Notes: generated by a model from the sequence alone, not told the origin. Numbered from the stretch's first letter, positions 10,045 through 62,936 are shown. The stretch is 64,000 nucleotides of DNA from Candidatus Latescibacterota bacterium (GCA_963422735.1 OY730476.1:1408001-1472000), one strand, 5' to 3'. Numbers and translations: made by a program.

Positions 10045-10126
10045 GGGACTCCTTTCGCTGGTGAGGGCCTCTAAATTTAGCTAATCTTCGCATCGGACGC
10101 CTCTATGCGTATATTCTCGCAACATT

Positions 10127-11500: not shown

Positions 11501-11565
11501 CGAGTCGATTCTACATGAACAACCCAAATCCAAAATCCGGTCCATCCTCCTCATTCCATAAATCC

Positions 11566-17268: not shown

Positions 17269-17697
17269 ATGAGCGAATCTCGTCCCGTAATCGTGTACGA
17301 CGGCGAATGCCGTTTCTGCCTGTGGAGCGTCGGCCGCATTCGCCGCTTTGACCGCAACGGCCGCTTCGAGTACCTGCCGCGCCAAACGGCCGGCATCGAA
17401 GAGCGGTTTCCGGTCCTCTCCCATTCCGACTTTAACACCGGCCTGCGCCTCATTCACGCCGGCGGGCAGGTCGATGTCGGGGCGGATGCCGTGTACCAGA
17501 TTTACCGCCGGCTTCCTCCCTGGCACCTGCTCATCGGGGTGTACCGCATTCCGGGACTAAAGCAGCTATTTCGCGCCGGCTACGGCCTCGTAGCACGCAA
17601 TCGGCATCGATTCGGCAGGGTCGAATGCGCCGATGAGGCATGCGAAATCCCGTACGGCGAGCGGCACAAGGGCACCTCTGAGTCGGCTTCGGCCTGA
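17269..17697 (+). CDS. DCC1/DUF393 thiol-disulfide oxidoreductase
   Basis: YDGECRFC; YGLVARNRHR. Confidence 0.9.
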   Translation: MSESRPVIVYDGECRFCLWSVGRIRRFDRNGRFEYLPRQTAGIEERFPVLSHSDFNTGLRLIHAGGQVDVGADAVYQIYRRLPPWHLLIGVYRIPGLKQLFRAGYGLVARNRHRFGRVECADEACEIPYGERHKGTSESASA

Positions 17698-17716
17698 TTG
17701 CGCCACAAAGAACCCT

Positions 17717-35197: not shown

Positions 35198-35986
35198 TTA
35201 CTGCCTAATATGCGGTGCCTCCATCACGGCTCGCTCCTCCTCAGTCATGTCCTCGATGTAGGAAAAATATGTCGTCTGGTGCGCTCCCGAGCCATAGGAC
35301 AGAGTGCCAGGGCCGAACTTGTACAGCAGCGCCCGCCGCTCGTGCGCGGCCGTCCACGGCAGCGTGCCGTGCGTCAAGGTCTCGGTGAAGATCACTGCGT
35401 CGCCGGCCTTGCCGTTTACTTCGAGCACGTGCTCTTGATGCTTTTCCCACTTAATCATGCTCTGCGGACAGGCGAGGTTGGCCTTGTGGCTACCCGGTAT
35501 CACGGCCACACCCCCGTCGCCCGGCCCCTCATTGGCTAGTAGATACTCGACCACGGTCAGCCCGGTGAAGATGCGGTCGTTTTTAAAGAAGTACACTTCC
35601 GATATATCCTTGCGCTCCACTCCGCCGCCGTGCAAAAGCCCACCCTCGCAGCCCGCGTCCATGGCGATCAGCCCCGGCCCGTGGTCGAGGCGATACCCCC
35701 GGCCCAGGATTTCTTCGAGATAGGGCTTGACCTTGGGATGTACCAGCAGCTTGCGAAACGGCTCGCACCAAGGATGCTCCCAAGCCAACATGCCGCCCAA
35801 GTCCTTGCGCCGCGAGGTGCCTTGCATCGCCTGTGAGTCTCCGGCCAGCGAGCGGTCTATCTCGCCCATAAGGTCGCGGTGGCAGTCGATGCCGGCGTTG
35901 AGTTCGGCCACCTCCTCGGCGAGCAGCACATCTTTGAGGACCAAATAGCCCGTCAGGTCAAAGAGGTATTTGTCGTCTGCGTTCAT
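35198..35986 (-). CDS. Phytanoyl-CoA dioxygenase (PhyH) family
   Basis: YLFDLTGYLVL, LHGG, IPGSHKAN, KAGD..IFTETLTHG. Confidence 0.9.
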   Translation of the reverse strand: MNADDKYLFDLTGYLVLKDVLLAEEVAELNAGIDCHRDLMGEIDRSLAGDSQAMQGTSRRKDLGGMLAWEHPWCEPFRKLLVHPKVKPYLEEILGRGYRLDHGPGLIAMDAGCEGGLLHGGGVERKDISEVYFFKNDRIFTGLTVVEYLLANEGPGDGGVAVIPGSHKANLACPQSMIKWEKHQEHVLEVNGKAGDAVIFTETLTHGTLPWTAAHERRALLYKFGPGTLSYGSGAHQTTYFSYIEDMTEEERAVMEAPHIRQ

Positions 35987-41183: not shown

Positions 41184-42053
41184 ATGGAAGACTATTCACA
41201 CATTCAGAAGCCGAACTTGGGCTACCGCTATGAGTTCTCCACCGACGAACTTGACGCGATGGACGGATGCTTGGAGACGCACGGCTTCGCAGTGATCAAA
41301 GACGCGTTGCCGCCAGAGTTCGTCGCCAAACTCAAGCAGGCGGTGTGGGACGGCACGGACCCGGAGCACACGTTGCAACCGGGCGAGAGCCGCACGCGGC
41401 ACGCGTGGATCGAGTCTGGCCCAGGTGCTTGGGAGGTACTCGACTACGAGCCTTTCATGGACATTCACCGGCACCTGATCGGCACCGACGAACTGACGAT
41501 CCACCGCTCAGCTGCCATCATCCGCCGGACCGGCTCAGCTCCCGTGGGATGGCATACCGACTGGTGCGGTTATTCGACCGAGATCAAGCACTCGGGCGAC
41601 ATCCTCAACCGAGGGCTGTGGCCTTCGGGCAAGTGGTTTTACCTGACCGGTTCGCGGCCCGAGCACGGCGGCCTATGCGTCATAGAGGATTCCCACATCG
41701 AAGGCTGGGAGGGGCCGGAGGGATTCAGCATGACGGCCGATCGGCGCTCCTTCTATCCAGAGGGCACGGAGGAACGCGGCTACAATGGATTCGACATCCC
41801 CGGCCTCGTCCCCCTCTTCACCAACGGCGGCGACATGATCGTCTTCGCCCATCGCACGTATCACGGCGCGTTCCCCAACCGAATTGAAGAAACGCGCCTG
41901 TCTTGCGGCATCGGCTTCCGCGCCCGCAGCCACCGCATCGACATCCCTTGGGAAATCCCAGAGGAAGGCCAGTGGTTTTTGGCCAACCTACCCGATCGCT
42001 TGCGCCGCTATACGGACGGGTACACGAGCATCAACTTAGAGTGGCAGGGATGA
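41184..42053 (+). CDS. Phytanoyl-CoA dioxygenase (PhyH) family
   Basis: WHTD facial-triad start, VIEDSH, GDMIVF...HGA..N. Confidence 0.85.
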   Translation: MEDYSHIQKPNLGYRYEFSTDELDAMDGCLETHGFAVIKDALPPEFVAKLKQAVWDGTDPEHTLQPGESRTRHAWIESGPGAWEVLDYEPFMDIHRHLIGTDELTIHRSAAIIRRTGSAPVGWHTDWCGYSTEIKHSGDILNRGLWPSGKWFYLTGSRPEHGGLCVIEDSHIEGWEGPEGFSMTADRRSFYPEGTEERGYNGFDIPGLVPLFTNGGDMIVFAHRTYHGAFPNRIEETRLSCGIGFRARSHRIDIPWEIPEEGQWFLANLPDRLRRYTDGYTSINLEWQG

Positions 42054-49181: not shown

Positions 49182-49226
49182 AAAATTCGGCATTCCTCAC
49201 GTTTGTTCCCCTCTCACAGGTTATCG

Positions 49227-51575
49227 ATGACCGATACCACAGACCTCACTCCCGTCGAGCACCGCGCCGTAGCCGCCTCGCCCTTCGCCGCCCTCTATCC
49301 GTCCACCGAAAAGATCAAAACCATTGTAGTGGAGCACTTCCCAGCACTGGGCAAGCTAGCGGCGATGCGCTTTGTCGAATGGGTCCAAGACCATCCCGGC
49401 GGCGTGGTCTCGCTGCCGACGGGCAAGACTCCCGAGCACTTTATCCGCTGGATCGAGCGGCTGCTGAGGCATTGGGACGAGGCGGATATCCGCTGCCAAC
49501 TCGAAGAGGCCGGCATTGACCCAAGGCGCAAGCCGGACCTGCGCAGCTTGCACTTTGTGCAAATTGACGAATTCTACCCGATCGATCCCCGGCAGGACAA
49601 CAGTTTCTACGCGTATGTCAACCGCTTCTACATTGATGGTTTTGGGTTGGACCCGGCCAAGGCCCTGCGAATCAACTGCGCTGAGATCGGCCTGCAGGCC
49701 GGCCAAACTTTAAACGAGGTGTGGCCAGACGGCAGCGTGGATCTCTCGCTGCGCTACCGGGCCGCCCGCACCTCGCTTGAGCGAGTACAGCAGGACGCGC
49801 TGCAAAGGATCGACCAGTGGTGCCAAGAGTACGAGGAGCAAATCCGCGCCCTCGGAGGCATTGGCTTTTTCTTAGGAGGCATCGGCCCGGACGGGCACAT
49901 CGGCTTTAACGTGCGCGGCTCGGACCACTTTTCGACGACGAGGCTGACGGGGGTCAACTACGAAACTCAGGCTGCAGCCGCTAGCGACTTGGGCGGCATT
50001 GAGGTGGCGCGCAAGCGGCTGGTAATCACCATCGGTCTAGGCACGATCGTTGGCAATCCCGACTGCTGTGCCCTGATCATCGCCGCTGGCGAGGCCAAGG
50101 CTGGCATTGTCGCCGCCGCGGTCGAACAAGCACCAGACGTGCGCTATCCGGCCACGGCGTTGCATCGCCTACCCAGGGCGCGGTTCTATATTACCCAGGG
50201 AGCGGCCAAGGCACTCAGAGCTAGGCGGCTCGTACTCGTGCAGCAGCGGGTAGCCATGGACGACGAGATGGTGGAAAAAATTGTCATCGATTTAGCCTGC
50301 GGCTTGGGCAAAAAGATCATCGACCTGACCGAGGCCGACTTTGCCCAAGATGTCTTGGGAGCCGTGCTGTTGCGCCAGCACCCAGAGGGAATCGCCGCAC
50401 TGACGCAGCGGGTGAGCGATCGCCTAATAGGCAAAATCGAGCGGGGCTCCCAGACCCTTTCCGGTACGCGCTTCCTGCACACGGAGCCGCACCATGACGA
50501 CCTAATGCTGGGCTATCTGTCCTATATTGTCCGCCACGTGCGCGACGCCACCAACGTGCATTATTTCGCCTGCTTTACTGGCGGTTTTACTGCGGTGACT
50601 AACCGCTTTATCGAGGCTCATTTGCAACGGCTGCGGCACTTTTTGCCCAGTGCCGAATGCACGGCGCTGTGGGCGCAGGGCTACTTTGACCCCAGCTATG
50701 AAAATGGCCGCAACCGCGATGTTTGGCAGTACCTCGACGGGGTCGCTGCCGCAGATCCGCTCTTGTGCGATGAAGGAGCGGCACGGCGCTTTTTGCGGAA
50801 CCTCGTCGCGCTGTACGGCGTTGAAGACTTCGAGGGCATCGAGCCCCGGCTGACGGCGTTGGAGGCTTACTTTGCCAACCGCTATCCGGGCCAAAAGGAC
50901 GCGCCGGAGGTACAGATGCTCAAAAGCAAATGTCGCGGGTGGGAGGCCGAGTGTCTCTGGGGGTATTTTGGCTGGGATTGCGCCAGTGTCAAACACCTCA
51001 GCCTCGGCTTTTACACCGGCGACCTCTTCACCCAAGAGCCGACGCTCGAAGACGATGTGCCGCCCGTACTGGCGCTCCTCGACCAAGTATCCCCCGACGT
51101 AGTCGGCGTAGCTCTAGACCCAGAGGCTAGCGGGCCGGACACCCATTACAAGGTACTACAGGTGATCACCGAGGCACTCCGCCGCTACGAGCGACAAAGT
51201 GGACGCTCCGGTATCAAGGTCTGGGGCTACCGCAATGTGTGGTATCGCTTTGACCCCAGCGAGGCCAATATCTTCGTGCCGGTTTCGCTCAATATGTTCT
51301 CGGTCATGCACAGCGCCTTTATGAACACCTTTATCTCCCAGCGCGACTCCTCGTTCCCCAGTTACGATCACGACGGTCCCTTCTCCGAACTAGCGCAGCG
51401 GGTACAGGTCGATCAGTACCAGAAGATCAAAACCTGCCTTGGCCACAAGTGGTTCCACGAACACCCCAGCCCCCTGATCCGCGCCACGCGGGGTCTTGTC
51501 TTCCTCAAGGAAATGGATTTAGCTGAATTCTACGAGCGCAGCCGAGCACTCAAACAAGTGGCTGAAAACTGCTGA
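49227..51575 (+). CDS. nagB: Glucosamine-6-phosphate deaminase fused to PIG-L deacetylase-like domain
   Basis: LPTGKTP, QIDEFY, GGIGPDGHIGFN; C-terminal EPHHDD, DPEASGPDTH, WGYRNVW. Confidence 0.85.
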   Translation: MTDTTDLTPVEHRAVAASPFAALYPSTEKIKTIVVEHFPALGKLAAMRFVEWVQDHPGGVVSLPTGKTPEHFIRWIERLLRHWDEADIRCQLEEAGIDPRRKPDLRSLHFVQIDEFYPIDPRQDNSFYAYVNRFYIDGFGLDPAKALRINCAEIGLQAGQTLNEVWPDGSVDLSLRYRAARTSLERVQQDALQRIDQWCQEYEEQIRALGGIGFFLGGIGPDGHIGFNVRGSDHFSTTRLTGVNYETQAAAASDLGGIEVARKRLVITIGLGTIVGNPDCCALIIAAGEAKAGIVAAAVEQAPDVRYPATALHRLPRARFYITQGAAKALRARRLVLVQQRVAMDDEMVEKIVIDLACGLGKKIIDLTEADFAQDVLGAVLLRQHPEGIAALTQRVSDRLIGKIERGSQTLSGTRFLHTEPHHDDLMLGYLSYIVRHVRDATNVHYFACFTGGFTAVTNRFIEAHLQRLRHFLPSAECTALWAQGYFDPSYENGRNRDVWQYLDGVAAADPLLCDEGAARRFLRNLVALYGVEDFEGIEPRLTALEAYFANRYPGQKDAPEVQMLKSKCRGWEAECLWGYFGWDCASVKHLSLGFYTGDLFTQEPTLEDDVPPVLALLDQVSPDVVGVALDPEASGPDTHYKVLQVITEALRRYERQSGRSGIKVWGYRNVWYRFDPSEANIFVPVSLNMFSVMHSAFMNTFISQRDSSFPSYDHDGPFSELAQRVQVDQYQKIKTCLGHKWFHEHPSPLIRATRGLVFLKEMDLAEFYERSRALKQVAENC

Positions 51576-52625: not shown

Positions 52626-52678
52626 CTTCGGACGAAGTCCATTTGTGCTGCGCCCATTCTGCGCTATCTTGCTCTCAC

Positions 52679-52978
52679 ATGGAAAACACATACTTCGTCC
52701 CAGCCGACGCCGAGCACGTCGCCCGAGAGAAAAATAAGGCCAAGGTGCTGCGCCGCTCTCAGTGGTGGAAGCGCACACGGGCCGCTGGCCAGTGCTACTA
52801 CTGCCAGCAGTCGTTTGCGCCCGATGAACTGACCATGGACCACGTGGTGCCACTCATCCGCGGCGGCCGCACCACCAAATCCAACGTGGTGCCTTGCTGC
52901 AAGCACTGCAACAGCCAAAAGCAGCACCTGCTCCCCGTCGAATGGGCGGCCTTAGAGCGGCTGCGCGGCAAAGCCTAG
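52679..52978 (+). CDS. Small HNH endonuclease
   Basis: CYYC, TMDHVVP..RGG, NVVPCCKHCN. Confidence 0.9.
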   Translation: MENTYFVPADAEHVAREKNKAKVLRRSQWWKRTRAAGQCYYCQQSFAPDELTMDHVVPLIRGGRTTKSNVVPCCKHCNSQKQHLLPVEWAALERLRGKA

Positions 52979-53916
52979 TGATAATGCACAATGTCGGCTA
53001 TGGCCTCGGCCACTTCCTCAGCCACTTCCGCTGGCACCCGCGGATTGAACGGGCCACCCTCGCCGCCATCTACATCGCTAAATCCTCCCAAGTGCATGGC
53101 CTCAACCACCGCTGAATAGTTGTACATGCGGCCGTTGCGGAAGCGAATTTCCTCTAGGGCCGCGAGCTGGTTTTCAATTTGCTGAGAGGTCGCAAAATCG
53201 CCCCGGCGCTGGGCGTTGTTGATCTCGTCTGAGGCGCGGGCAAAGGCCACGTTGATCCCCGAGGTATGCCCTTTGGTGCCGCGCTCGGCCGGCCCGGTCG
53301 AGCGGTCGCCCACTCCCCATATCACCAGCGCAGCTCCCTCCTCCACACCCGCGACAATCGGCTCGACATCCTCGACCGTGGTGCCGATTTTCAGCCCCAC
53401 GAAGTGCTCGGACTCGTTCATCAGCCGCACGGCTATCTCGCGCTCGGCTTGGTTGCGAAGGTAGTAGAGCAACTTGGCCCCGCACGAGCACCCCAACCGC
53501 TCGGCAAAATCCGCGTAGTACGCGAAAATGCCCTCTGGATTGGCCACGCCAGCAAGCGGCATGACGAGATAGACATCCGGGGGATATTCGAGCGCGGCCT
53601 CCCGCTCGATCAACCGCTCGGCATCTCCAACCGGATTGGGAGCAATCCCGGACATCAGCACCCCGCGCCCCCCCATCTGCTCGCCGGTAAAGCCCAACAG
53701 CCGCACTTGCTCGTCCGCGCTAATGTGGTGGATCAAGCTAGTGCCGGCGATGCCGATAACCCGGGGCCGGCTGCCGTCTAAGTGATTGTTCTCCATCAAG
53801 TAGTTGATGTTCTTGGCGTGGGCGTCGTAGTCGATTTGCCCCGTGCGAAAAGGGACCACCGGGATGGAGGTAACCGAGTTTAGCGCGGTGAGTAGGTTTT
53901 CTTTTTGCAATGGCAT
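52975..53916 (-). CDS. Divergent DHDPS/NanA-family lyase (KDG-dehydratase-like)
   Basis: IPVVPF, LLYY, VGLKIG (Schiff-base Lys), GHTSG; lacks GxxGE. Confidence 0.75.
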   Translation of the reverse strand: MPLQKENLLTALNSVTSIPVVPFRTGQIDYDAHAKNINYLMENNHLDGSRPRVIGIAGTSLIHHISADEQVRLLGFTGEQMGGRGVLMSGIAPNPVGDAERLIEREAALEYPPDVYLVMPLAGVANPEGIFAYYADFAERLGCSCGAKLLYYLRNQAEREIAVRLMNESEHFVGLKIGTTVEDVEPIVAGVEEGAALVIWGVGDRSTGPAERGTKGHTSGINVAFARASDEINNAQRRGDFATSQQIENQLAALEEIRFRNGRMYNYSAVVEAMHLGGFSDVDGGEGGPFNPRVPAEVAEEVAEAIADIVHYH

Positions 53917-53949
53917 TTTTAACCTCGACTTTGTTAGGTGGAGATGGAT

Positions 53950-55026
53950 TCAACGCTCGGGCGCGAAGCGGCGCATGTCGCGCCCCGGGGTTCCCTCGGC
54001 GATCCAGCGAGCGACGATTTGGCCGGTAATCGGGCCTAGCAAGACGCCGCTTTTGTAGTGCCCAGAGGCCACGAAGACTCGCGGCGCATCTGTCAGCGGG
54101 CCGATAAGCGGACGCCCGCCTCGGGGCTTGGGCCGCAGACCGGCCTGCTGGCGCGACAGCGGCAAGCACTTCCCCAGCGCAGAGCTTACCTCCGAGGTGA
54201 ACTCCGCCGCGGCCGCGCGAGTCGTTTCCAACCGAAAGCCGACCTCCTCCAACGTCGATCCCACGACCGTTTCGCCGTCGCTTGGAATGAGGTGGCGTCC
54301 GTTTATCCTCACTAGGTGGCGCAGCGGGGCACCGACAAAACGCGCTTGTTGGCCCCGCACCGGGCGCAGCGCGACTCGGGCACCGATCTGGGCGGCCAAT
54401 TCGCCGGTCCACGCCCCAGCCGCCAAGACCGCAAAATCGGCACGGTGAGTTCCGCGATTGGTGGCGACCTCGACGGCCTCGCCCTCTTGGGCAATGCGCC
54501 AGACGCGCGCTCCCCAAGCGGCGGATGCTCCCTGCTGGACGGCAGCCGCCCAAAGCGCCGCGCCCAATTTGAGGGGATCCACCCGGTGATCATCGGCAAA
54601 ATACAGACCCTCGCAGCCGCCGTCCAACGCCGGCTCCGCACCGCGCAAGGCCCGCTCGTCAAGACGCTCGACCCGACAGCCGCGCGCGCGGTTGAAGTGC
54701 CATACCTCCTCTAGCTGGGATGCGTCGGTAAAAAGCTCGATGCCGCCGAGGGGACGCCAGCTCACATCCGCGTCCATATCTTCGGCTAGGTCGCGGGCCA
54801 GCCTCGTATGCAGAGCGTGGCCGTCGCGGAAAAGCTGAGCGTAGGGATTGTCACCGCCGTTGCAATGGGTGAGGACGCCCAAAGAGGCCCGACTCGTGGG
54901 CGAGCCTGCGGCGCTCCCCTCGTCGAGCAGGACGACCTTCGCACCCTGCCGCACGAGGAAATAGGCGGTCGAGCGGCCGATGATACCAGCCCCGACCACC
55001 AACACGCGCCCGCCCGCCAAGGTCAT
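53950..55026 (-). CDS. FAD-dependent oxidoreductase (glycine oxidase/DAO family)
   Basis: GAGIIG, PVRGQ, AGLRP, GHYKSGVLLGPITG. Confidence 0.9.
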   Translation of the reverse strand: MTLAGGRVLVVGAGIIGRSTAYFLVRQGAKVVLLDEGSAAGSPTSRASLGVLTHCNGGDNPYAQLFRDGHALHTRLARDLAEDMDADVSWRPLGGIELFTDASQLEEVWHFNRARGCRVERLDERALRGAEPALDGGCEGLYFADDHRVDPLKLGAALWAAAVQQGASAAWGARVWRIAQEGEAVEVATNRGTHRADFAVLAAGAWTGELAAQIGARVALRPVRGQQARFVGAPLRHLVRINGRHLIPSDGETVVGSTLEEVGFRLETTRAAAAEFTSEVSSALGKCLPLSRQQAGLRPKPRGGRPLIGPLTDAPRVFVASGHYKSGVLLGPITGQIVARWIAEGTPGRDMRRFAPER

Positions 55027-56196
55027 CTAACGACCGATTATCGGCGGCAGGTTGGTAGTTGGGCAGGCGCGAGGGCCGCTCACCGGATAGCCCATATCCG
55101 CGAGGACGCAGTTGATTTGGGCCTCTAGCTTGAGCAGGTACTCTTGCTCGGCCGCGCTGCTCGACGCACGCGCTGGGCCTACGTCAAAGCCGCGGGCGGC
55201 CACGCCGGTCTTGAAACCCTCTGGGAAGTTGACTCCTAAGAGCATGAGGTTAATTAGGTCGAGGATGCGGTATTGCAATTTGCGGGCGCGTTCGACGTCG
55301 CCGCTTTTGGCCTTTTCATAAAGCTCGACGATGACTTCCGGGACGATGCCCGAGGTGGCGATGGTGCCCCCGCTGGCACCCATCAGCACCGAGGGGAAGA
55401 CGATCTCCTCGCAACCGGTCATTACCACGTAGTCGGGGCGTTGTTGGCGCAGGCGATGCATGGTGTTGAGCAGCCGCGGCAGGTCGCGGCTGGAGTCCTT
55501 GGTACCGAAGATCCGCTCGTAGGGCAAGAGCCGCTCCATCAAATCTATCGACAGCTCTTGGGTAAATTGCGGGATGTTGTACAGCAAGATGTCCAACGGC
55601 GACTCTTCGGCGATTTCGGCGAAGTACTCGAAGAGGCTCTCGCTGGAAATCTCATAGTAATAGGGGGGCATCAGCGCAATGGCATCCACGCCGAGCGAGG
55701 CGTAGTATTCGGCCATCTTGAGCACGTCGCGCAAGTTGGCCTCGCTGGCTCCGGCCAATACGGGTACGCGTCCCTTGTTGACCTCGCAGACCAGCCGCAC
55801 CACATCTTGGCGCTCCTCCCGCGACAGGCGCGCGAACTCGCCGGTGCTGCCATTGGGGTACAGCCCGTGGATCCCGACCTCTATAAGCCAGTTGATGTAG
55901 CGCTCCATCTCGGCGTGGTTGATCTCGTTCTGACTATCGAAAAGGACGACATTAGGGCAGAAGATGCCAGCAAATGCCTTGCGGCCGACGGCGCGGGGAA
56001 CCGCTGGTGCCGGTGCTGGCACTGGGGGGGCTTGGCCGTCGGCCTCCCGACGCATCACCTCGACGCCTTGGACGCGCAAAAAGTCCTGTGCCGAGGGCGT
56101 CAGCTTGGCTCCCGGGCCAAGCTCGACCTGCCGTTCGCCAGCTAGGCAGCCCTCCAAGGTCTGAGCGGTAATTACTGCATCATCAATCCGAATCAT
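55027..56196 (-). CDS. DHDPS/NanA-family aldolase with extra N-terminal domain (probable BMC signature enzyme)
   Basis: NGSTGEF, YNIPQF, GTKDSS; ~50-aa N-terminal domain plus Pro/Ala linker. Confidence 0.88.
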   Translation of the reverse strand: MIRIDDAVITAQTLEGCLAGERQVELGPGAKLTPSAQDFLRVQGVEVMRREADGQAPPVPAPAPAVPRAVGRKAFAGIFCPNVVLFDSQNEINHAEMERYINWLIEVGIHGLYPNGSTGEFARLSREERQDVVRLVCEVNKGRVPVLAGASEANLRDVLKMAEYYASLGVDAIALMPPYYYEISSESLFEYFAEIAEESPLDILLYNIPQFTQELSIDLMERLLPYERIFGTKDSSRDLPRLLNTMHRLRQQRPDYVVMTGCEEIVFPSVLMGASGGTIATSGIVPEVIVELYEKAKSGDVERARKLQYRILDLINLMLLGVNFPEGFKTGVAARGFDVGPARASSSAAEQEYLLKLEAQINCVLADMGYPVSGPRACPTTNLPPIIGR

Positions 56197-56210
56197 TCTT
56201 CGCGTCCTCG

Positions 56211-57365
56211 CTAAACGTGCGGCAGGCGGCCTTCGAGGCCTCTATAGGGCTGCGGAATGGCGTAGGCCGAGACCAGTTCTCCGTGAGCGACGGCCTCCTG
56301 CCGGCCCGCCTCTATGGCGACCTGCACAGCGCCGACATCGCCGCGGACGACGGCGGCAGTCAAGTAGTACCCCACTTTATAGGCTCCCTCGTATTCGACG
56401 GCCGCGGCCTTGAGCATCCGATCGACGGCCCGCACTAAGGCCACGGTGCTGCGCGTCTCGATCAGCCCCATAGCCTGCCGCGCACCCGGGCCAAGGCCCT
56501 CAGCTGCAGTGGCAAAACGGGCGACTAGCGCGGGATCGGGCCTAGAGACTACGGCCGAGGCGTCGAGCTGCCCCAAGGCCGTAGCGGCCGCGGCACCGGC
56601 GCGCACCGCGACCTGCACATCGTCGAGTTGGCCGGTGGCCAGCACGACAATCCGCCCGCCGCTGCCCATGCTCAAGCGCTCGATTTGGACATCCGCGGCC
56701 TTGAGCATGGCGTCGGCGCTGCCCACGATCGCAGCGTAACCAATGGTCTCTACGAGACCCAAGGCACCAGTGGAGCGCGGCGCGGACGCCGGCGCGGGCG
56801 GCAACAGAGGGCCTAGCCCCTCGCTGGGCTGGGGCAAAACAAGGGTCGCGTACACTGTGCCAATCCGCTCGGCTGCTTGCCGGCCAGCTTCTAGCGCCGT
56901 TTGCACGGCCGCCACATCGCCAAAGACCGGCGCGTGGCACAGAGCACCACCGATGAAGGCCCAGCCCCCTAGTTCCACTTGGGCGGCCTTGAGCATGGCG
57001 TCGGCGCCAGCCACTAGCGGCGTCAGGCCCTGCGTTTCCAACAGGCCAATCGCCTGCGGCTGTACCTGTTCGGCACCGAGGCCGGTTGCGTGGGGCATAG
57101 CATCCACGGCGCGCGCGTCCGGCCGCGGCACCACTTGCGCACCAATTAATTCGCCGGTGCGGTTCGCCTCGACCTCGCCGACGCGAATAGCTACCTCCAC
57201 GTCAGCCACTTGGCCGGCAATTACTGCGGTGAGCCAACCCGAGCCGATGCCGTGCCGACCGCAGAGGCGTATCTCAGCGGCCTTGAGCATGGCGTCGGTG
57301 GAAGCCATTAGCGACGCCATGCCGCACGTCTCCAGCATGCCGATTGCTCCGCTAGACACCGCCAC
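56211..57365 (-). CDS. BMC shell protein with four BMC domains
   Basis: Four repeats of A(I/L/M)G(M/L)xET...DxMLKAA...G(D/Q)(V/L)xxV...(P/S)(R/Q)P. Confidence 0.9.
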   Translation of the reverse strand: MAVSSGAIGMLETCGMASLMASTDAMLKAAEIRLCGRHGIGSGWLTAVIAGQVADVEVAIRVGEVEANRTGELIGAQVVPRPDARAVDAMPHATGLGAEQVQPQAIGLLETQGLTPLVAGADAMLKAAQVELGGWAFIGGALCHAPVFGDVAAVQTALEAGRQAAERIGTVYATLVLPQPSEGLGPLLPPAPASAPRSTGALGLVETIGYAAIVGSADAMLKAADVQIERLSMGSGGRIVVLATGQLDDVQVAVRAGAAAATALGQLDASAVVSRPDPALVARFATAAEGLGPGARQAMGLIETRSTVALVRAVDRMLKAAAVEYEGAYKVGYYLTAAVVRGDVGAVQVAIEAGRQEAVAHGELVSAYAIPQPYRGLEGRLPHV

Positions 57366-57936
57366 CCCCTATCGGCACGGCATATGCGGCCAAGACCTCT
57401 GGCCGCGGCTGCGGGATCAGTGCCGTGCTCAGCAAGCGCTCGCAGTCCGCGAGCAGCTTTTGTGCGACGGCTATGGCTTCGGTGACGGCTCCTACGTCCC
57501 CCAAGACCAGCGAACATACCACGCGGTCGTGGACCGTCAGCACGTTGATTACTTCGACGGCAACCGTCTTGACCATCTGATCGTTGGTGTGGATATGGCC
57601 CCCGTAGCCGCGCGTCTCGACCAGCCCCAAGGCACCGGCGGGAAAGTCGCTGTGGGCACGGACCGGAAAATCGACAAAATGGAGGCAGGCGGGAGCGGGT
57701 TGGTGTAGGGACACCGCCATCACGTGTTCTATTACTCCGCGGGCCGCTTCTTCGCCGCTTTGCAGCGCGGCGGCCACATCGCTGATCGACCCGGTAAAAA
57801 AGGCAGTGGTATAACCGCCGATCGACGCCCAACCTGCGAGCTTCACGTCCGCGGCTTTGCAGGCCGCATCTGCACCCACAATAGCGGCAGCCACGCCTTC
57901 CACTTCGATCATGCCGACTGCTGGGAACCCCGCCAT
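57352..57936 (-). CDS. BMC shell protein with two divergent domains
   Basis: AVGMIEV...DAACKAA and ALGLVETRG...GDVGAV...IPQP. Confidence 0.88.
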   Translation of the reverse strand: MAGFPAVGMIEVEGVAAAIVGADAACKAADVKLAGWASIGGYTTAFFTGSISDVAAALQSGEEAARGVIEHVMAVSLHQPAPACLHFVDFPVRAHSDFPAGALGLVETRGYGGHIHTNDQMVKTVAVEVINVLTVHDRVVCSLVLGDVGAVTEAIAVAQKLLADCERLLSTALIPQPRPEVLAAYAVPIGGGGV

Positions 57937-57939
57937 AGC

Positions 57940-58389
57940 TCAGTCTGCCAGCCGATGAGTTACCAGCTCGGCGACCTGTTCGACTAAGGCTTCCGGGTCA
58001 GTGGCTTGGCCCTTCTCGATTTGTTGTAAAAGCGTCTTGTAGCGGTTGCAGCCGGCGCAACTCGCCTCGAGGTCGCCCGCCTTCTTGCGCTGGTGAACGG
58101 CGCAATCGCCGCAGTGCGCCGGCTCGACGTACCCCGAGCCAAATTCCTCGTGCTGGCAGCCGCAGGCGCGGTCGGGATGCTCGCACCGGCCCACGTCCGC
58201 AGTGCCGGCGGCGGCTGCCGCAACGGCCTCCCCACGGCTCAACTGCAACCGGTGCTGGCGGATGTAATCCCAAGCCGTCGGGGTCAAGATGGCACTGGGG
58301 GCCACGCTGAGTGCCCGCTCGCCCTTGTGCTCGCGCCCGAGTAAGTCCCCAGTGACGACCGGGGCGTCAATGTGCAAAGCCTCGGCCAC
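57940..58389 (-). CDS. Cys-rich BMC-associated hypothetical protein
   Basis: LTPTAWDY domain; 7 Cys; C-terminal amphipathic helix DPEALVEQVAELVTHRL. Confidence 0.75.
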   Translation of the reverse strand: MAEALHIDAPVVTGDLLGREHKGERALSVAPSAILTPTAWDYIRQHRLQLSRGEAVAAAAAGTADVGRCEHPDRACGCQHEEFGSGYVEPAHCGDCAVHQRKKAGDLEASCAGCNRYKTLLQQIEKGQATDPEALVEQVAELVTHRLAD

Positions 58390-58393
58390 CTAG

Positions 58394-58657
58394 CTAACCA
58401 ATGTGGTCTGTCAGCCCCTCAGTCGGGCGGGGAATCACGTGGACACTGCGCAGCTCGCCGATGCGCTGGGCGGCTTGCGCACCCGCATCTACGGCCGCTT
58501 TGACAGCCGCTACGTCGCCTTCGACTAGCACGGTAATTAGGCCACTACCCACGCGCTTTTGGCCCGCATAGCTCACGTCGGCGGTCTTCAACATGGCGTC
58601 GAGGGCTTCGACGACGCAGACCAAACCGCGGGTCTCGACCATGCCCAATGCTTTCAT
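58394..58657 (-). CDS. BMC-H hexamer shell protein (EutM/PduA-like)
   Basis: [33 protein letters not shown]. Confidence 0.95.
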
Positions 58658-58672
58658 TTTTGTCTCCTCTCT

Positions 58673-59233
58673 CTATAAGTACAGCGCGACGAGATCGTCG
58701 TGGGGGCGGGGAATCACGTGCTGCGATACGAGCTCGCCTACGCGCTCGGCCGACTCAGCACCAGCACTGACCGAAGCCTGCACCGAGCCGACATCGCCGC
58801 TGACTATGACGGTGATGTACCCGCCGCCGATGTCTTGGAGCTTGATGACCTCCACATCGGCGGCCTTGCTCATAGCGTCGGCCGCTTCGACCACGCCGAT
58901 GGCCCCTTTCGTTTCAATGAGGCCCAAGGCGCGGACGCGGTCATCGCTGTCGCTGCTGTCGCTGCGCTCGGGCACGACGGCCGTCAACTCGCTGTGCGGG
59001 CGGGGAATCACGTGTACCGAATGCACCTCCCCGACCTTGGCCGCAGCGGTCGAGCCGGCATCCACGGCCGACTTAACAGCCGCCACATCGCCCGAGCAAA
59101 ATACGGTCACCAAGCCAGAGCCGACTCTGTCCCAGCCCAAAAGCTGCACGCTGGCGGCCTTGGCCATGGCGTCGCCGGCCTCGACGACCCCGACTAGTCC
59201 CACGGTTTCTACCATGCCTATTGCATCCGACAT
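58673..59233 (-). CDS. Tandem BMC shell protein (two canonical domains)
   Basis: Both halves keep KAA, GSG/GGG, GDV and VIPRPH. Confidence 0.93.
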   Translation of the reverse strand: MSDAIGMVETVGLVGVVEAGDAMAKAASVQLLGWDRVGSGLVTVFCSGDVAAVKSAVDAGSTAAAKVGEVHSVHVIPRPHSELTAVVPERSDSSDSDDRVRALGLIETKGAIGVVEAADAMSKAADVEVIKLQDIGGGYITVIVSGDVGSVQASVSAGAESAERVGELVSQHVIPRPHDDLVALYL

Positions 59234-59269
59234 CCCTTACCTCCTGAAGTAATTGTGCGGATTTTGCGT

Positions 59270-59944
59270 TCAACGCTCCAAATATACCTTGTGGGCATGT
59301 ACCAAATCAATCGCATTGCCCTCGTCCGTGTCGATGTGAACCTCCAAGCGCTCGCGCTCGCTGACTCGGCAGATCAATCCTTCCAAGACCCCGCCCTGAT
59401 CGCCTTCTATTACCAGCCGCAGTAAGTCCCCCGGGCCGACCCCGTAATACGCGGCTTCTGCCGGGTTTAGATGCACGTGGCGGGCCGCCCGGATCACCCC
59501 ATGATCTAACTCCAGCCCCCCAGCCGGCCCCACCAAGTAGCAGCCCGGCGTCCCCTCGATGTTGCTGCTGGGCCGCACCGGCGCGTCAATGCCCAAAAAG
59601 CGGGCATCTGTAAAGGCCAGCTCCACCTGGTTGTAATCGCGCAATGGGCCGAGGATTCGGACATTGGGAACCACCTGCTTGCGCGGACCGAAAACCGACA
59701 CCGTCTGCTCGGCGGCAAAAGCGCCCTCTTGGTACAGGGCCTTCTGCACGGTTAGCTCAGCACCCGCGCCGAAGAGCGCGTTCAGCGCCTCTTGGTTGAG
59801 GTGGACGTGGCGGGCGGACATATTGACAACCAGCCTCGGGGCTGAGGGTGCCTGCTCTAGCTGAGCGTCGGGCAGGTGATCGTACACCACTCGGCGCACC
59901 AACGCCTCAATCTGCTTGCGGTCCAGTCCAGCCGCTTCCATCAT
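59270..59944 (-). CDS. pduL: PduL-type phosphotransacylase with N-terminal encapsulation peptide
   Basis: SARHVHL, RHVHL, HIDTDEGNA; IEALVRRVV helix. Confidence 0.95.
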   Translation of the reverse strand: MMEAAGLDRKQIEALVRRVVYDHLPDAQLEQAPSAPRLVVNMSARHVHLNQEALNALFGAGAELTVQKALYQEGAFAAEQTVSVFGPRKQVVPNVRILGPLRDYNQVELAFTDARFLGIDAPVRPSSNIEGTPGCYLVGPAGGLELDHGVIRAARHVHLNPAEAAYYGVGPGDLLRLVIEGDQGGVLEGLICRVSERERLEVHIDTDEGNAIDLVHAHKVYLER

Positions 59945-60259
59945 CTACTCTTCGCGGCTCAGTTGCCGACAGTCGAAGTCCTTGCCCATAGCCTGTAGCG
60001 AATCGACGATCCCGACGATTACCGCGTCGGCTGGCACATCGCCCAAGTTCGGGGCGATCCGCGACGAACTGCCCTGCACCAAAATCACCAGCTCGCCCTT
60101 GCCCGCTTGCACCGCGTCGATGCAGACCATATCCCGCCCCGTCAGCACCAAACCGCGCTCGCGCACCGACGCGATTTCGACGACTAGGAGCTTCTTGCCG
60201 TTGAGGCTTGGGACCTTGGCCGTGGAGACCAAATGCCCTTTGACTTGGCCCAAGAGCAT
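59945..60259 (-). CDS. eutN: BMC-P vertex protein (EutN/CcmL)
   Basis: MLLGQVKG..VSTAK, DAVQAGKGE.V, GSSSR, DAVIVGIVD. Confidence 0.95.
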   Translation of the reverse strand: MLLGQVKGHLVSTAKVPSLNGKKLLVVEIASVRERGLVLTGRDMVCIDAVQAGKGELVILVQGSSSRIAPNLGDVPADAVIVGIVDSLQAMGKDFDCRQLSREE

Positions 60260-61671
60260 CAGGTGATGCGGAAGTAATCGACGAGGGCGCAGCGGCGCTG
60301 GCGGGTAAAGGTTCGCGGCGAAGTCAGGCCCTCGCCCGTAGGCCCGGCAATGGAGTACGTCCCAAAGCCCTCGCCGCCCAAGCCAACCCCGGCGTAGGAA
60401 GGGCCGTTCTTGACGAAAATAGTGGTATCTACGGCGCGGGCCATGTTGTGCATGTTTTCGATGTTGCGCGAATGGATTACGGCCGTGTGCCCGTAGCCGT
60501 GCTCGGAGATGACGGCCTCGCGGATGGCTTGATCGATGTTGGGAACCCGCACGACCGGCAGAAAGGGCATCATCTGCTCCTCGCGCACGAAAACGTGATT
60601 GGCATCGGTCTCGCCAATGAGCATGCGCAGCGACGAGTCGAGCCGGAGGCCAATGCGCTCGCCCAGCACGGCGGCGTCGCGCCCCACTAGCTCGCGGCTG
60701 ACGGCGAGATGTCCGTCTGGCCCTTCGACAAAGGCCACCTGCGCGAGAGCCTCGATCTGCCGCGCATCGAGCTCATAGGCATTGTACTGGACCATCAGCC
60801 GCTTGAGCTCGTCGGCAACTGACGCGACGGCAAAAACCTGCTTCTCGCCGATGCAGAGAATGTTGTTGTCAAAGCCCCCCCCGTCGATGATGTCGCGCGC
60901 GGCCTTGGCCAAATCGGCCGTTTCATCAACCACCACGGGCGGATTGCCCGGGCCGGCGATGATGGCCTTTTTGGGACTGCCCAGCGCGGCCTTGGCCACG
61001 CCCGGCCCGCCAGTGACCAGCAGAAGGCGGACGTCCGGGTGGTTGAACAACTCGTTGGCCGTCTCAATGGTCGGCGTTTCGACCGCGGTCACCAAGTTGG
61101 CCGGCCCGCCGACTGCGACGATGGCTTGATTAATCAAGCCCACCGCGAATATGGAGACCTTTCTGCCCGCCGGATGTACGTTGAAGACGACCGAGTTGCC
61201 CGCGGCGACAATGCAAATGGCGTTGTTGACCATCGTTGGCACGGGATGCGTCGATGGGGTGACCGCGCCGATGACCCCATAGGGCGCCATTTCGACTACG
61301 GTCAGCCCGTGATCGCCGGTCCACGAAATTGCCTCTAGATCTTCGACGCCGGGTGTGGTGTCGGCCGCGACTTGGTGCTTGATAATCTTGTCTTCCAACC
61401 GCCCCATGCCCGTCTCAGCCAAGGCCCGCCGCGACAATTCCCCGGCGTGGACGTGCGCCGTCTGCCGGAGGGCCGCGACGATTTTTTTGCGCTCCTCCAG
61501 CGACAAGGCGACCAACTGCTGCTGGGCGCGGGTCGCTCCTTGGACGGCCGCGTCAATTGTCGCGAAGACGCCGGTGTTCCCGCCCTCGCTGCTGCCCCCG
61601 CCGCTGACGACTCGCTGTACTACTTCCTCGACTATTTTGCGTACGTGTTCTTCGCTGACGTTTTGGGGCAC
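60259..61671 (-). CDS. eutE: CoA-acylating aldehyde dehydrogenase (EutE/PduP) with encapsulation peptide
   Basis: PYGVIGAVTPSTHP, AGPGNPP, FDNNILCIGEK, GPTGEG; VRKIVEEVVQRV. Confidence 0.95.
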   Translation of the reverse strand: MPQNVSEEHVRKIVEEVVQRVVSGGGSSEGGNTGVFATIDAAVQGATRAQQQLVALSLEERKKIVAALRQTAHVHAGELSRRALAETGMGRLEDKIIKHQVAADTTPGVEDLEAISWTGDHGLTVVEMAPYGVIGAVTPSTHPVPTMVNNAICIVAAGNSVVFNVHPAGRKVSIFAVGLINQAIVAVGGPANLVTAVETPTIETANELFNHPDVRLLLVTGGPGVAKAALGSPKKAIIAGPGNPPVVVDETADLAKAARDIIDGGGFDNNILCIGEKQVFAVASVADELKRLMVQYNAYELDARQIEALAQVAFVEGPDGHLAVSRELVGRDAAVLGERIGLRLDSSLRMLIGETDANHVFVREEQMMPFLPVVRVPNIDQAIREAVISEHGYGHTAVIHSRNIENMHNMARAVDTTIFVKNGPSYAGVGLGGEGFGTYSIAGPTGEGLTSPRTFTRQRRCALVDYFRIT

Positions 61672-61710
61672 GCTCTTTCCTCGCGTTGGGTTTAATATTT
61701 AAGAACGGGG

Positions 61711-61774
61711 AAAATAGGCGGCCCGACCCCAAGCGTCAAGGTTATTTGACGGACTGCCAGCCCTGCCTTAAGGT
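61711..61774. promoter_or_regulatory. Back-to-back sigma70-like promoters
   Basis: Minus: TTGACG-17-TATTTT (BMC operon). Plus: TTGACG-17-TAAGGT (FAH gene). Confidence 0.6.
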
Positions 61775-61808
61775 TTGTGCAAGTGCTGAAAAAACAAAGG
61801 AGAAAGAC

Positions 61809-62612
61809 ATGCGCATCATCCGCTTTATAGACGCTGACGACGCCGTCTGTTGGGGCCTTGAAGCCGAGGGAAGTCAAGCCTCCGTACTCACCGGCGATCC
61901 CTTCAAAGACCTAGTGCCCACGGGCGAACAGGTGGTCGTCAAAAGGCGACTCGCCCCGCTCGCCCCGACCAACATTTTCTGCATTGGGCTAAACTACCGA
62001 GAACACGCAGCCGAATCCGGCCTTGCGCCGCCCGATCAGCCCGTAGTTTTTGCCAAGCCCACAAGCGCGGTCTGCGGCTCGGGAGACGCGATCCTGCTGC
62101 CAGCCTGCTGTCGCCGCGGCCCGGAAGTTGACTACGAGTGCGAGCTCGCGGTGGTGATCGGCAAGGCCGCCCGCAACGTGGCTCGGGCCGACGCCCTCAG
62201 CTACGTATTTGGATACACGTGCGCCAACGATGTCTCGGCCCGCAAGTGGCAGCTAAACGGCGGCGGCGGCCAATGGATCCGCGGCAAGGGCTTTGACACC
62301 TTCTGCCCTTTGGGGCCGGTGCTGGTCACAGCCGACGAAGTTCCCGACCCGCAAACCCTCGGAATCCGCACGATCCTCAACGGCGCGACTATGCAAGACC
62401 ACACCACCGGCGACATGATCTTCACGGTCGCCGAGCTGATCGAATTCCTCAGCCAAGATACGACCTTACTGCCGGGCACGGTCATCCTCACCGGCACCCC
62501 GCAGGGCGTGGGTTTTGCGCGCAAACCGCCGGTGTGGCTCGCGGCCGGCGACGAGGTAATCGTGGAAATAGACCAGATCGGCCGGCTGCAAAACCCGGTG
62601 GAAGCGGCCTAG
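61809..62612 (+). CDS. Fumarylacetoacetate hydrolase family
   Basis: CIGLNY, DYECEL, ANDVSAR, GKGFDTFCP, TGTP. Confidence 0.93.
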   Translation: MRIIRFIDADDAVCWGLEAEGSQASVLTGDPFKDLVPTGEQVVVKRRLAPLAPTNIFCIGLNYREHAAESGLAPPDQPVVFAKPTSAVCGSGDAILLPACCRRGPEVDYECELAVVIGKAARNVARADALSYVFGYTCANDVSARKWQLNGGGGQWIRGKGFDTFCPLGPVLVTADEVPDPQTLGIRTILNGATMQDHTTGDMIFTVAELIEFLSQDTTLLPGTVILTGTPQGVGFARKPPVWLAAGDEVIVEIDQIGRLQNPVEAA

Positions 62613-62615
62613 CGT

Positions 62616-62936
62616 TCACGCTTCCTTGAACATCCCGAACGCAAAGGCTTCGGGTAACTCCTCGAAGATGATCTGCCCCCCATCGTCGGTCTCCAACAAC
62701 TGGGCCATGTAGTCGTACCACTTTTCCAAGATGGGAACTTGGCGGCTCTTGAGCCAGTCTTCCTCGGTGGGGGCAACCGCGTGGATGACGAGGTGTTCGC
62801 CCAAGCGGTAGATGGCCATGCTGACCTCGTTGTCGGTCATGCTCTCGGCGATTTCGGGCCACAGGTCGTCGTGGGCCTGTTTGTACTCGGCGTACGCATT
62901 GGGGCGCAGCCGCATGGCCAAGCCAATCGAATGCAT
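62616..62936 (-). CDS. L-rhamnose mutarotase family
   Basis: EYKQAHDDLWPE, KWYDYM. Confidence 0.75.
   Translation of the reverse strand: MHSIGLAMRLRPNAYAEYKQAHDDLWPEIAESMTDNEVSMAIYRLGEHLVIHAVAPTEEDWLKSRQVPILEKWYDYMAQLLETDDGGQIIFEELPEAFAFGMFKEA

Follow-up and report, generated by a model that had tools for sequence, protein, structure and literature searches.

A metabolosome operon in Candidatus Latescibacterota that appears related to the PVM fucose/rhamnose organelle and encodes a shell-linked, very probably encapsulated class I aldolase

The PVM (Planctomycetes-Verrucomicrobia) bacterial microcompartment (BMC), which Erbilgin is said to have described in 2014, reportedly handles L-fucose and L-rhamnose by way of a lactaldehyde intermediate. 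Non-phosphorylative sugar catabolism proceeds through a sugar dehydrogenase, a lactonase and an acid-sugar dehydratase to a 2-keto-3-deoxy acid, the substrate class of aldolases of the dihydrodipicolinate synthase (DHDPS) family, and we know of no described aldolase for 2-keto-3-deoxygluconate (KDG), 2-keto-3-deoxygalactonate (KDGal), 2-keto-3-deoxyxylonate (KD-xylonate) or 2-keto-3-deoxyrhamnonate that is encapsulated. The same enzyme family takes part in bacterial hydroxyproline catabolism, the core of which is a pair formed by a D-hydroxyproline dehydrogenase of the D-amino acid oxidase (DAO) family and a DHDPS-family pyrroline-4-hydroxy-2-carboxylate deaminase. Here we describe an operon of eleven genes (positions 52975-61671, minus strand) in a 64,000-nucleotide stretch of DNA from a Candidatus Latescibacterota bacterium (GCA_963422735.1, OY730476.1:1408001-1472000), the whole of which we call the window. 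The operon is a genuine metabolosome-type BMC operon; it appears from its gene content to be related to the PVM organelle, and the DHDPS-family lyase that it encodes is very probably a conserved, shell-linked, encapsulated class I aldolase.

Searched by term, the main texts of Axen 2014 (PMC4207490) and Sutter 2021 (PMC8217296) yielded no DHDPS-family enzyme for any BMC, and two papers on fucose and rhamnose BMCs (PMC8857213 and PMC11685898) give, in their available text, the class II aldolase route only. A full-text literature search combining microcompartments with dihydrodipicolinate, DapA or 2-keto-3-deoxy returned nothing relevant. Many catalogued BMCs that contain an aldehyde dehydrogenase (AldDH), apparently including the present locus type, have no known aldehyde source. 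Among the AldDH-containing loci without an obvious signature enzyme, Sutter 2021 (PMC8217296) includes MUF2, for which the main text gives neither a function nor a link to PVM. The locus type has probably been catalogued already with its function unsolved, and the MUF2 label is a candidate only; the suggestion of a possibly uncharacterised BMC type, made in a first-pass annotation, therefore probably goes too far.

This first-pass annotation, made by a model from the sequence alone, had described eleven tightly packed genes here, and all eleven open reading frames (ORFs) are indeed present over the full span, co-oriented on the minus strand with intergenic spacing of -14 to +36 nt. The AldDH and BMC-P genes overlap by 1 nt, there is no gap at all between BMC-P and PduL or between the lyase and the oxidase, and a 194-aa shell gene overlaps the four-domain shell gene that follows it by 14 nt. 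Together the clustered BMC-H and BMC-P shell genes hold nine PF00936 domains and one PF03319 domain. A scan for promoters and terminators in the operon gave site counts no higher than those in shuffled sequence. The genome itself (G000) is a single contig of 4.95 Mb with an estimated completeness of 95%. Relatives were sought in one genome per species; 570 were confirmed, and the best 80 loci were kept, comprising 27 close loci, in metagenome-assembled genomes (MAGs) titled Latescibacterota or Gemmatimonadota, and 53 loci from Planctomycetota and Verrucomicrobiota, which we call PVC-type. The eleven-gene arrangement is not a product of chance: public MAG loci with a lyase 65-95% identical to that of the window repeat its order.

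The enzymatic core of the operon is similar to that of PVM. Its CoA-acylating AldDH (470 aa, 60259..61671; PF00171) scores 649 bits against NF011927, with a cut-off of 403, and its closest solved relatives are the BMC AldDHs 5jfl, 4c3s and 6gvs (E 1e-128 to 1e-132). In pairwise comparisons only, it shares 50% identity with its counterpart in a Verrucomicrobiota PVM locus (L030) and 57-73% with relatives within its own phylum. The PduL-type phosphotransacylase (224 aa, 59270..59944) matches PF06130 at 216 bits and NF011652 at 218 bits against a cut-off of 209. By eye, the AldDH begins with an amphipathic helix followed by a Gly/Ser linker, in the manner of an encapsulation peptide (EP), and PduL likewise begins with an EP-like helix. 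None of the eleven operon genes belongs to an alcohol dehydrogenase family; no search for one was made in the rest of the genome.

The other parts expected of a PVM organelle are found at satellite loci. The genome has one copy, as far as found, of a class II aldolase (PF00596, 240 aa, G000:C1:726628-727350), which lies outside the operon, is 43% identical to the aldolase of L030, and ends in an EP-like amphipathic helix formed by its last ~16 residues after a short linker. It starts ~0.8 kb downstream of a satellite BMC-H gene of 93 aa, with a membrane-protein ORF between the two. There are also a BMC-P triplet of PF03319-type genes next to lytB (G000:C1:4930449-4931244), a 149-aa BMC-H whose C-terminal tail is basic and helical, encoded directly beside rpsR (S18) (L083:6995-7444, minus strand, equivalent to G000:C1 near 3.909 Mb), and, outside the operon, a single acetate-kinase-family gene. 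Like PVM, then, this genome has an acylating AldDH, PduL, a BMC-P triplet, a tailed class II aldolase and an acetate kinase; unlike PVM, it keeps the aldolase, the triplet and the kinase away from the main locus, so that of the PVM traits a class II aldolase within the operon is lacking while the triplet, the kinase and PduL are present in dispersed form. The main locus differs further in having a DHDPS-family lyase, two two-domain BMC proteins, a four-domain BMC fusion (4xBMC), a Cys-rich protein, a ThiO-like oxidase and a second DHDPS-like gene, and the host phylum is not one of the PVC phyla.

Relatives bridge this difference. In two complete genomes (G001 and G002) the main locus has the order PduL, a 494-aa protein, BMC-H, BMC-P, AldDH, BMC-P, BMC-P, class II aldolase, acetate kinase, other genes and a second BMC-H, with the lyase in a separate module (two-domain BMC, 4xBMC, lyase) away from the AldDH locus; the main-locus order matches the PVM architecture as given in the available text of Axen 2014 (PMC4207490). 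At L030, the lyase and a two-domain BMC gene directly abut a full PVM locus. The earlier statement that there is neither a class II aldolase nor an acyl kinase is thus right for the operon and wrong for the genome, which has the tailed satellite aldolase and the acetate kinase. It had also cast the lyase as the apparent signature enzyme; since the genome encodes a class II aldolase and sister loci are PVM-like, the lyase is instead a second candidate for that role, not the sole one.

The lyase (389 aa, 55027..56196) belongs to the DHDPS/N-acetylneuraminate lyase (NAL) family of class I, Schiff-base enzymes (PF00701, 199 bits) and consists of an N-terminal domain of ~55 aa, a Pro/Ala linker and a TIM-barrel core from about residue 75. 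As had been proposed, it is not DapA: it scores 155.5 against TIGR00674, where the cut-off is 206.15, while a paralog at G000:C1:4897949-4898986 passes at 224.1 and is the true DapA of the genome. It also falls short of the models for NanA (NF003164, 167.4 against 281; TIGR00683, 137.4 against 382), KDG aldolase (128 against 390) and KdgD (99 against 374), the last two also in NCBIfam, and neither it nor the satellite class II aldolase reaches any NCBIfam equivalog cut-off. The Schiff-base Lys and the YNIPQF segment reported earlier are both as described: Lys233 (in GTKDSS) and Tyr206 (in YNIPQF) align with their counterparts in 4xky and 4uxd and do not vary among 15 homologs, in an alignment whose mean column identity is 76%; the archaeal KD(P)G aldolase 4uxd has the same hexapeptide. 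The lyase thus resembles the class I aldolases of non-phosphorylative L-rhamnose and L-fucose catabolism and those for KDG, KDGal and KD-xylonate in its fold family, its Schiff-base Lys and Tyr, its YNIPQF segment (as in 4uxd), and the sugar dehydrogenase, lactonase and dehydratase genes beside its homologs. It differs from them in its sub-threshold scores, its separate clade, its shell-targeting appendages and its linkage to BMC genes. The separate clade is seen in a FastTree phylogeny of 79 homologs and nine DHDPS paralogs from the same genome (the sequences from L025 and L043 were dropped as broken or partial, as was one paralog of <250 aa): the homologs form one group with SH-like support of 100 on a stem of 1.03, the true DapA being the nearest paralog, and divide into an N-domain subclade (27 rows, support 98), a Verrucomicrobiota-dominated subclade (31 rows, 99) and a Planctomycetota-dominated one (21 rows, 85). 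One other DHDPS-family paralog (G000:C1:1299967-1300777, minus strand) is in two pieces with an in-frame TGA and may be a pseudogene.

The lyase has many full-length homologs (66-92% identity). It was suggested beforehand that the scheme would fall if the lyase were unlinked to the shell, and linkage is what we found: the lyase comes directly after the 4xBMC gene in all 27 close loci, with the closest BMC ORF 0-40 nt away, and lies within 500 nt of a BMC gene in 34 of the 53 PVC-type loci, usually with a two-domain protein of ~200 aa immediately downstream. The AldDH is in the same locus as the lyase in 18 of the 23 close loci where this could be assessed, and five loci (L013, L014, L015, L017 and L019), two of them from the complete genomes G001 and G002, have the module of two-domain BMC, 4xBMC and lyase only. 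At one of these, L017 (4119-5990, plus strand), an aldehyde ferredoxin oxidoreductase gene precedes the module by ~0.6-0.9 kb, surrounded by sulfatase- and heparinase-like genes, and it may be an alternative aldehyde sink. The lyase of a complete Latescibacterota MAG (L025:10001-11181) is read as two overlapping ORFs (10001-10876 and 10627-11181), through either a frameshift or an assembly error. At some Verrucomicrobiota-type loci (L049:11773-13640, minus; L033:7143-9820, plus) the lyase pair is adjoined by additional genes, either another two-domain BMC gene accompanied by a PduS-like flavoprotein or genes for a GlcD/GlcF-like FAD/Fe-S oxidase, which may serve redox recycling or lactate oxidation.

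At the level of the phylum, the lyase occurs in 47 of 121 sampled genomes (17 of the 52 of high quality), BMC domains in 106 and a class II aldolase homolog (E <= 1e-35) in 105. All 47 lyase-positive genomes are BMC-positive and all 15 BMC-negative genomes are without the lyase. The class II aldolase match is present in 43 of the 47 as well; when three of the lyase-positive genomes without it were rechecked, two (G065 and G090) proved to have a more distant PF00596 protein and one (G067) had none. Because the class II aldolase is found in 105 of the 121 genomes and the lyase in only 47, the basal organelle of the phylum must work without the lyase. On this distribution of genes, the basal organelle is a class II aldolase metabolosome to which the lyase and its extra shell proteins have been added as a module; in the genome of the window this module is merged, judging by gene order, with the AldDH/PduL core.

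The shell genes include both ordinary and unusual forms. The BMC-P vertex (pentamer) protein (104 aa, 59945..60259; PF03319, 84 bits) and the BMC-H hexamer protein (87 aa, 58394..58657; PF00936, 94 bits) are single-domain, and a 186-aa protein (58673..59233; PF00936 in two stretches, 176 bits) has two BMC domains that are both canonical and non-permuted by domain alignment. A second two-domain protein of 194 aa, with more divergent domains (57352..57936; PF00936 in two stretches, 106 bits), is encoded by the first gene of the conserved three-gene lyase module and stands upstream of 4xBMC in all 25 loci with sufficient contig. Four BMC-domain shell genes had been counted before, and the number holds; the fourth of them is now seen to be a four-domain fusion. 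This 4xBMC protein (384 aa, 56211..57365; PF00936 in four stretches, 251 bits) carries domains at residues 5-91, 103-188, 199-284 and 296-382 which, by domain alignment, are canonical, non-permuted and BMC-H-like, with linkers of 10-12 residues. Since a hexagonal tile comprises six domains, a chain of four cannot fill tiles evenly and would have to span two of them, with three chains for every two tiles. In L014 and L019 one ORF of 386-395 aa encodes the fusion, in L017 one of 488 aa; at L020 it is divided into two ORFs. The main text of the Sutter 2021 catalog (PMC8217296) describes BMC proteins only in one- and two-domain forms.

Encapsulation of the lyase is suggested by what is appended to the fold, and the appendage differs between lineages. 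Members of the N-domain clade share a conserved start of ~55 residues followed by a variable Pro/Ala linker; Planctomycetota and Verrucomicrobiota lyases lack this domain and in 51 of the 53 loci have instead a tail of 29-58 residues past the fold. An amphipathic pattern (i, i+1, i+4, i+5, i+8) is present in 48 of the 53 PVC-type tails and in none of 26 N-domain-clade tails or of the 11 DHDPS-family ORFs of the window genome, the lyase included. The N-domain is shared with the Cys-rich protein of the operon (149 aa, 57940..58389), whose gene the first-pass annotation had placed after all four shell genes; its actual place is between the BMC-H gene and the third shell gene. Orthologs occupy the same position in 19 loci. 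The protein comprises an N-terminal alpha/beta domain of ~52 aa, a variable linker, five Cys (GC, CxxC, CxGC) that are invariant in a 15-row alignment, and a C-terminal amphipathic helix, and its N-terminus is 36% identical to the lyase N-domain over 50 aa (E 2e-8). It belongs to no Pfam or NCBIfam family: it had no NCBIfam match, and neither it nor the N-domain had a Pfam match even at E 10. An AlphaFold2 model gives residues 1-52 a beta-alpha-beta-alpha-beta fold at a pLDDT of ~90 and residues 55-90 values <50, and a Foldseek search of the PDB with this model returned no match at E <= 1e-3. A hidden Markov model (HMM) of the N-domain matches only the lyase and the Cys-rich protein among the six-frame ORFs of the genome, and only their orthologs in the sampled loci. 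Pairwise BLAST aligned the N-domain with the N-terminus of the class II aldolase of the L030 PVM locus (E 2e-4, 43% identity across 35 aa), a relation that the HMM did not recover. The layout of N-domain, disordered linker, Cys residues and C-terminal helix suggests an adaptor or scaffold, and the Cys-rich protein is a candidate for such a role or for a metal-binding one; from the common N-domain and the EP-like helix, it may tether the lyase to the shell.

The neighborhoods of the lyase point to sugar acids as its substrates. Pfam and NCBIfam scans of nine Planctomycetota and Verrucomicrobiota loci, together with a blastp survey of all 80, found at least one sugar-acid pathway gene in 25 of the 53 PVC-type loci. 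Dehydratases of the enolase superfamily occur in 17 of these 53, within 3 kb in 12, and are directly adjacent to the lyase in L039, L041, L052 and L054; short-chain dehydrogenase/reductase (SDR) genes occur in 13, RhaT in four, fumarylacetoacetate hydrolase (FAH)-family genes in two and Amidohydro_2 lactonases in two, the sole NCBIfam match of the latter being L-fucono-1,5-lactonase (167 and 258 bits, cut-off 400). At L049 the order is SDR, dehydratase, lactonase, lyase, two-domain BMC; a GH106 rhamnosidase gene is present at L066 and an SDR with RhaT at L055, and L041 is surrounded by uronate and pectin genes. Beside the operon of the window, next to the AldDH, a divergently transcribed FAH-family hydrolase (61686..62612, plus strand; PF01557, 257 bits) has 2,4-didehydro-3-deoxy-L-rhamnonate hydrolase as its best NCBIfam match (NF053535, 221 bits, below the cut-off of 500) and is kept beside the AldDH in 10 of the 27 close loci by blastp and in 13 by phmmer. 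It is followed by a protein of the L-rhamnose mutarotase family (RhaM, 106 aa, 62616..62936, minus strand; PF05336, 56 bits), a family whose gene adjoins FAH in five of the 27. No match to the RhaA or FucI families was found in this genome, so that an isomerase/kinase route is not evident in it. Because of FAH and RhaM beside the operon, the kinship to PVM, the lack of a RhaA or FucI match and the sugar-acid neighbors of its relatives, we consider 2-keto-3-deoxy-L-fuconate or 2-keto-3-deoxy-L-rhamnonate the most likely substrate of the lyase, with pyruvate and L-lactaldehyde as the predicted products. Cleavage of a 2-keto-3-deoxy acid to pyruvate and an aldehyde had been proposed before and agrees with these neighbors; what has to be added is the class II aldolase as another candidate source, and the earlier interpretation as a whole is partly supported.

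We thus envision the operon as the main locus of a PVM-related, multi-locus metabolosome which the lyase feeds with an aldehyde, probably L-lactaldehyde, from a 2-keto-3-deoxy (6-deoxy)sugar acid, and we put the probability of this reading at about 0.55. A dehydratase of the enolase superfamily would make the 2-keto-3-deoxy sugar acid and the lyase would cleave it to pyruvate and L-lactaldehyde, so that a non-phosphorylative deoxy-sugar route would supply the same organelle and its lumen would have two candidate aldehyde sources, the satellite class II aldolase with its EP-like tail and the DHDPS-family lyase of the operon. Going by family membership, the AldDH would convert the aldehyde formed in the lumen to an acyl-CoA, and PduL would recycle the CoA and form an acyl-phosphate, from which the acetate-kinase-family enzyme encoded elsewhere could then yield ATP. 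The lyase travels with dedicated shell genes (the two-domain BMC and 4xBMC here, the two-domain BMC in Planctomycetota and Verrucomicrobiota) and may here be held at the shell through the Cys-rich protein, which has the common N-domain and an EP-like helix.

Several observations weigh against this reading. The flanks of 28 of the 53 PVC-type loci hold no sugar-acid gene, the two enolase-superfamily genes of the window lie ~30 kb from the operon, and the dehydratases adjacent to the lyase in relatives are mostly below all equivalog cut-offs. The lyase is itself under every NCBIfam equivalog cut-off, and solved neighbors of mixed function (DHDPS entries, KDG aldolase, YagE, NanA and HOGA1) score alike, so that the sequence by itself does not fix the substrate. 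The lyase tree is a FastTree phylogeny with SH-like support only and with rows drawn from the best 80 of 570 relatives, and the evidence for encapsulation consists of the sequence appendages. The start of the oxidase abuts the stop of the lyase, which suggests a functional tie that the scheme above does not explain. In favor of the reading, contigs of four metatranscriptomic libraries, from four studies, are 90-99% identical to the stretch and cover 24-29 of its 30 bins, and single contigs reach across 55513-61671, 57665-61662 and 57194-61577; these contigs are from relatives, with DNA carry-over possible, and they give only a weak hint of co-transcription.

The least unlikely of the alternatives keeps the enzyme class and the organelle and changes the aldehyde, with KDGal, KDG or a 2-keto-3-deoxy-pentonate cleaved to D-glyceraldehyde or glycolaldehyde. 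D-galactonate dehydratase is the match of the dehydratases of L054 (323), L014 (398) and L079 (310.9), where the cut-off is 311, and because these passing or nearly passing enzymes are of the galactonate and not the fuconate or rhamnonate type, the aldehyde could be glyceraldehyde or glycolaldehyde; the nearest solved relatives of the lyase include aldolases of the KDG, KDGal and KD-xylonate types (4uxd, YagE), and L041 lies amid uronate and pectin genes. We nevertheless think this unlikely: the AldDH, the aldolase and the shell set are akin to those of PVM, for which the available text of Axen 2014 (PMC4207490) gives lactaldehyde as the aldehyde, and the neighbors include rhamnose- or fucose-specific genes (RhaM, RhaT, GH106, the fucono-lactonase-like gene and the rhamnonate-route FAH). 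We find it improbable that the class II aldolase is the only source of aldehyde, as in PVM, and that the lyase is encapsulated for another reason, whether to use or supply pyruvate, to catalyze the condensation reaction, or to serve the additional shell proteins as a structural partner. The excess of aldolase homologs (105 of 121 genomes) over the lyase (47), and their co-occurrence in 43 of these 47, are what one would expect in that case. Yet the lyase keeps all class I aldolase catalytic motifs that were checked, at the 76% mean column identity over 15 sequences given above, follows acid-sugar dehydratases directly in several loci, and resides in a genome with no RhaA or FucI match to supply fuculose or rhamnulose phosphate.

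The last two genes of the operon bear on another alternative. The lyase is followed by an FAD oxidoreductase of the DAO family (358 aa, 53950..55026; PF01266, 193 bits) that is nearest to ThiO but below its cut-off (TIGR02352, 174.8 against 250.8), with glycine oxidases as its best PDB matches (E ~1e-28); it keeps the Arg of the GLRP motif, which we take to bind the substrate carboxylate, and is different where it aligns with the active-site stretch of ThiO. The second lyase (313 aa, 52975..53916; PF00701, 40 bits) is a divergent DHDPS-like protein that scores 30.1 against TIGR00674 (cut-off 206.15), has 3e96 as its best PDB match (E 1e-9), and keeps a Lys in G-[LV]-K-[IV]-G-T that is invariant in 16 orthologs. 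Homologs of the two bear automatic labels only ("glycine oxidase" and "DHDPS/NAL", respectively), and a protein atlas search with the second lyase gave generic DHDPS-family clusters only. One could suppose that the oxidase acts on an amino acid (e.g., D-hydroxyproline or another 4-hydroxy amino acid) and that one or both DHDPS-like proteins make an aldehyde (2-oxoglutarate semialdehyde, glyoxylate or an amino-aldehyde) from the 4-hydroxy-2-oxo or cyclic imine product. As in the hydroxyproline pair, a DAO-family oxidase here adjoins DHDPS-family genes, being set between two of them with its start against the stop of the lyase; it is closest to glycine oxidases, has the GLRP Arg, and follows the lyase in 22 of the 27 close loci.

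Such an amino or imino acid route is nevertheless doubtful, a shade more so than a change of aldehyde. In G001 and G002, both complete genomes that retain the lyase module together with a full BMC, the second lyase is missing and so is any ortholog of the oxidase, the best match being 32-33% identical; the second lyase, present in 19 of 26 assessable close loci, has no ortholog in G004 or G005 either, of which G004 has the oxidase. No PVC-type locus has a match to the oxidase, and the second lyase has none in Verrucomicrobiota at E <= 1e-25 among 151 genomes. No targeting extension was seen in either protein, and the contexts of homologs are sugar-acid genes. The single-contig genome has no match to the Pro_racemase/4-hydroxyproline 2-epimerase family (PF05544), which weakens a route of the hydroxyproline type; unlike the hydroxyproline pair, therefore, the present genes come without an epimerase match, with an oxidase that relatives dispense with, and in a BMC and sugar-acid context. 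The first-pass annotation had counted the oxidase and the second lyase among the members of the operon; by their distribution across genomes they are dispensable accessories and not part of its core. The C-terminus of the second lyase was considered as an encapsulation peptide and rejected, because the ortholog alignment and the ends of paralogs show it to be the normal end of a DHDPS fold, and the second DHDPS-like gene of L030 is unrelated to it by BLAST.

At its other end the operon converges on a small ORF with an HNH endonuclease domain (52643..52978, plus strand; PF14279, 58 bits), which 20 of the 27 close loci also have immediately downstream of the operon and which has no evident tie to the organelle. 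Elsewhere in the window are two sulfatases (11329-12813 and 17633-19054), two PhyH-family dioxygenases (35198-35986 and 41184-42053) and a 790-aa protein resembling glucosamine-6-phosphate deaminase (49203-51575), a set consistent with a polysaccharide-degrading lifestyle. The available text of PMC8857213 and PMC11685898 presents Planctomycetota and Verrucomicrobiota as degraders of sulfated polysaccharides rich in fucose and rhamnose.

The comparison links the locus to the PVM organelle and nominates a testable enzyme and substrate class, and it identifies the same lyase as a tagged, shell-linked candidate cargo in Planctomycetota and Verrucomicrobiota. More broadly, and at somewhat under even odds, we propose that a clade of DHDPS-family class I aldolases, hitherto unrecognised, serves as a dedicated BMC cargo in MAGs labelled as at least four phyla (Latescibacterota, Gemmatimonadota, Planctomycetota and Verrucomicrobiota), that it was fitted twice with different targeting devices, a folded N-terminal domain of ~55 aa and a C-terminal helix, and that it always comes with extra shell proteins of its own, among them, in this operon, the four-domain BMC fusion. 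If this is true, the Cys-rich protein, which has both devices, would be a new kind of cargo-to-shell adaptor, and the N-terminal targeting domain, the adaptor candidate and the four-domain shell fusion would be useful parts for compartment engineering. A catalogued BMC type whose function is unsolved would then gain both a signature enzyme and a substrate class, and the oxidative, non-phosphorylative catabolism of fucose and rhamnose, or of related sugar acids, would be organelle-dependent and encapsulated like the phosphorylative route.

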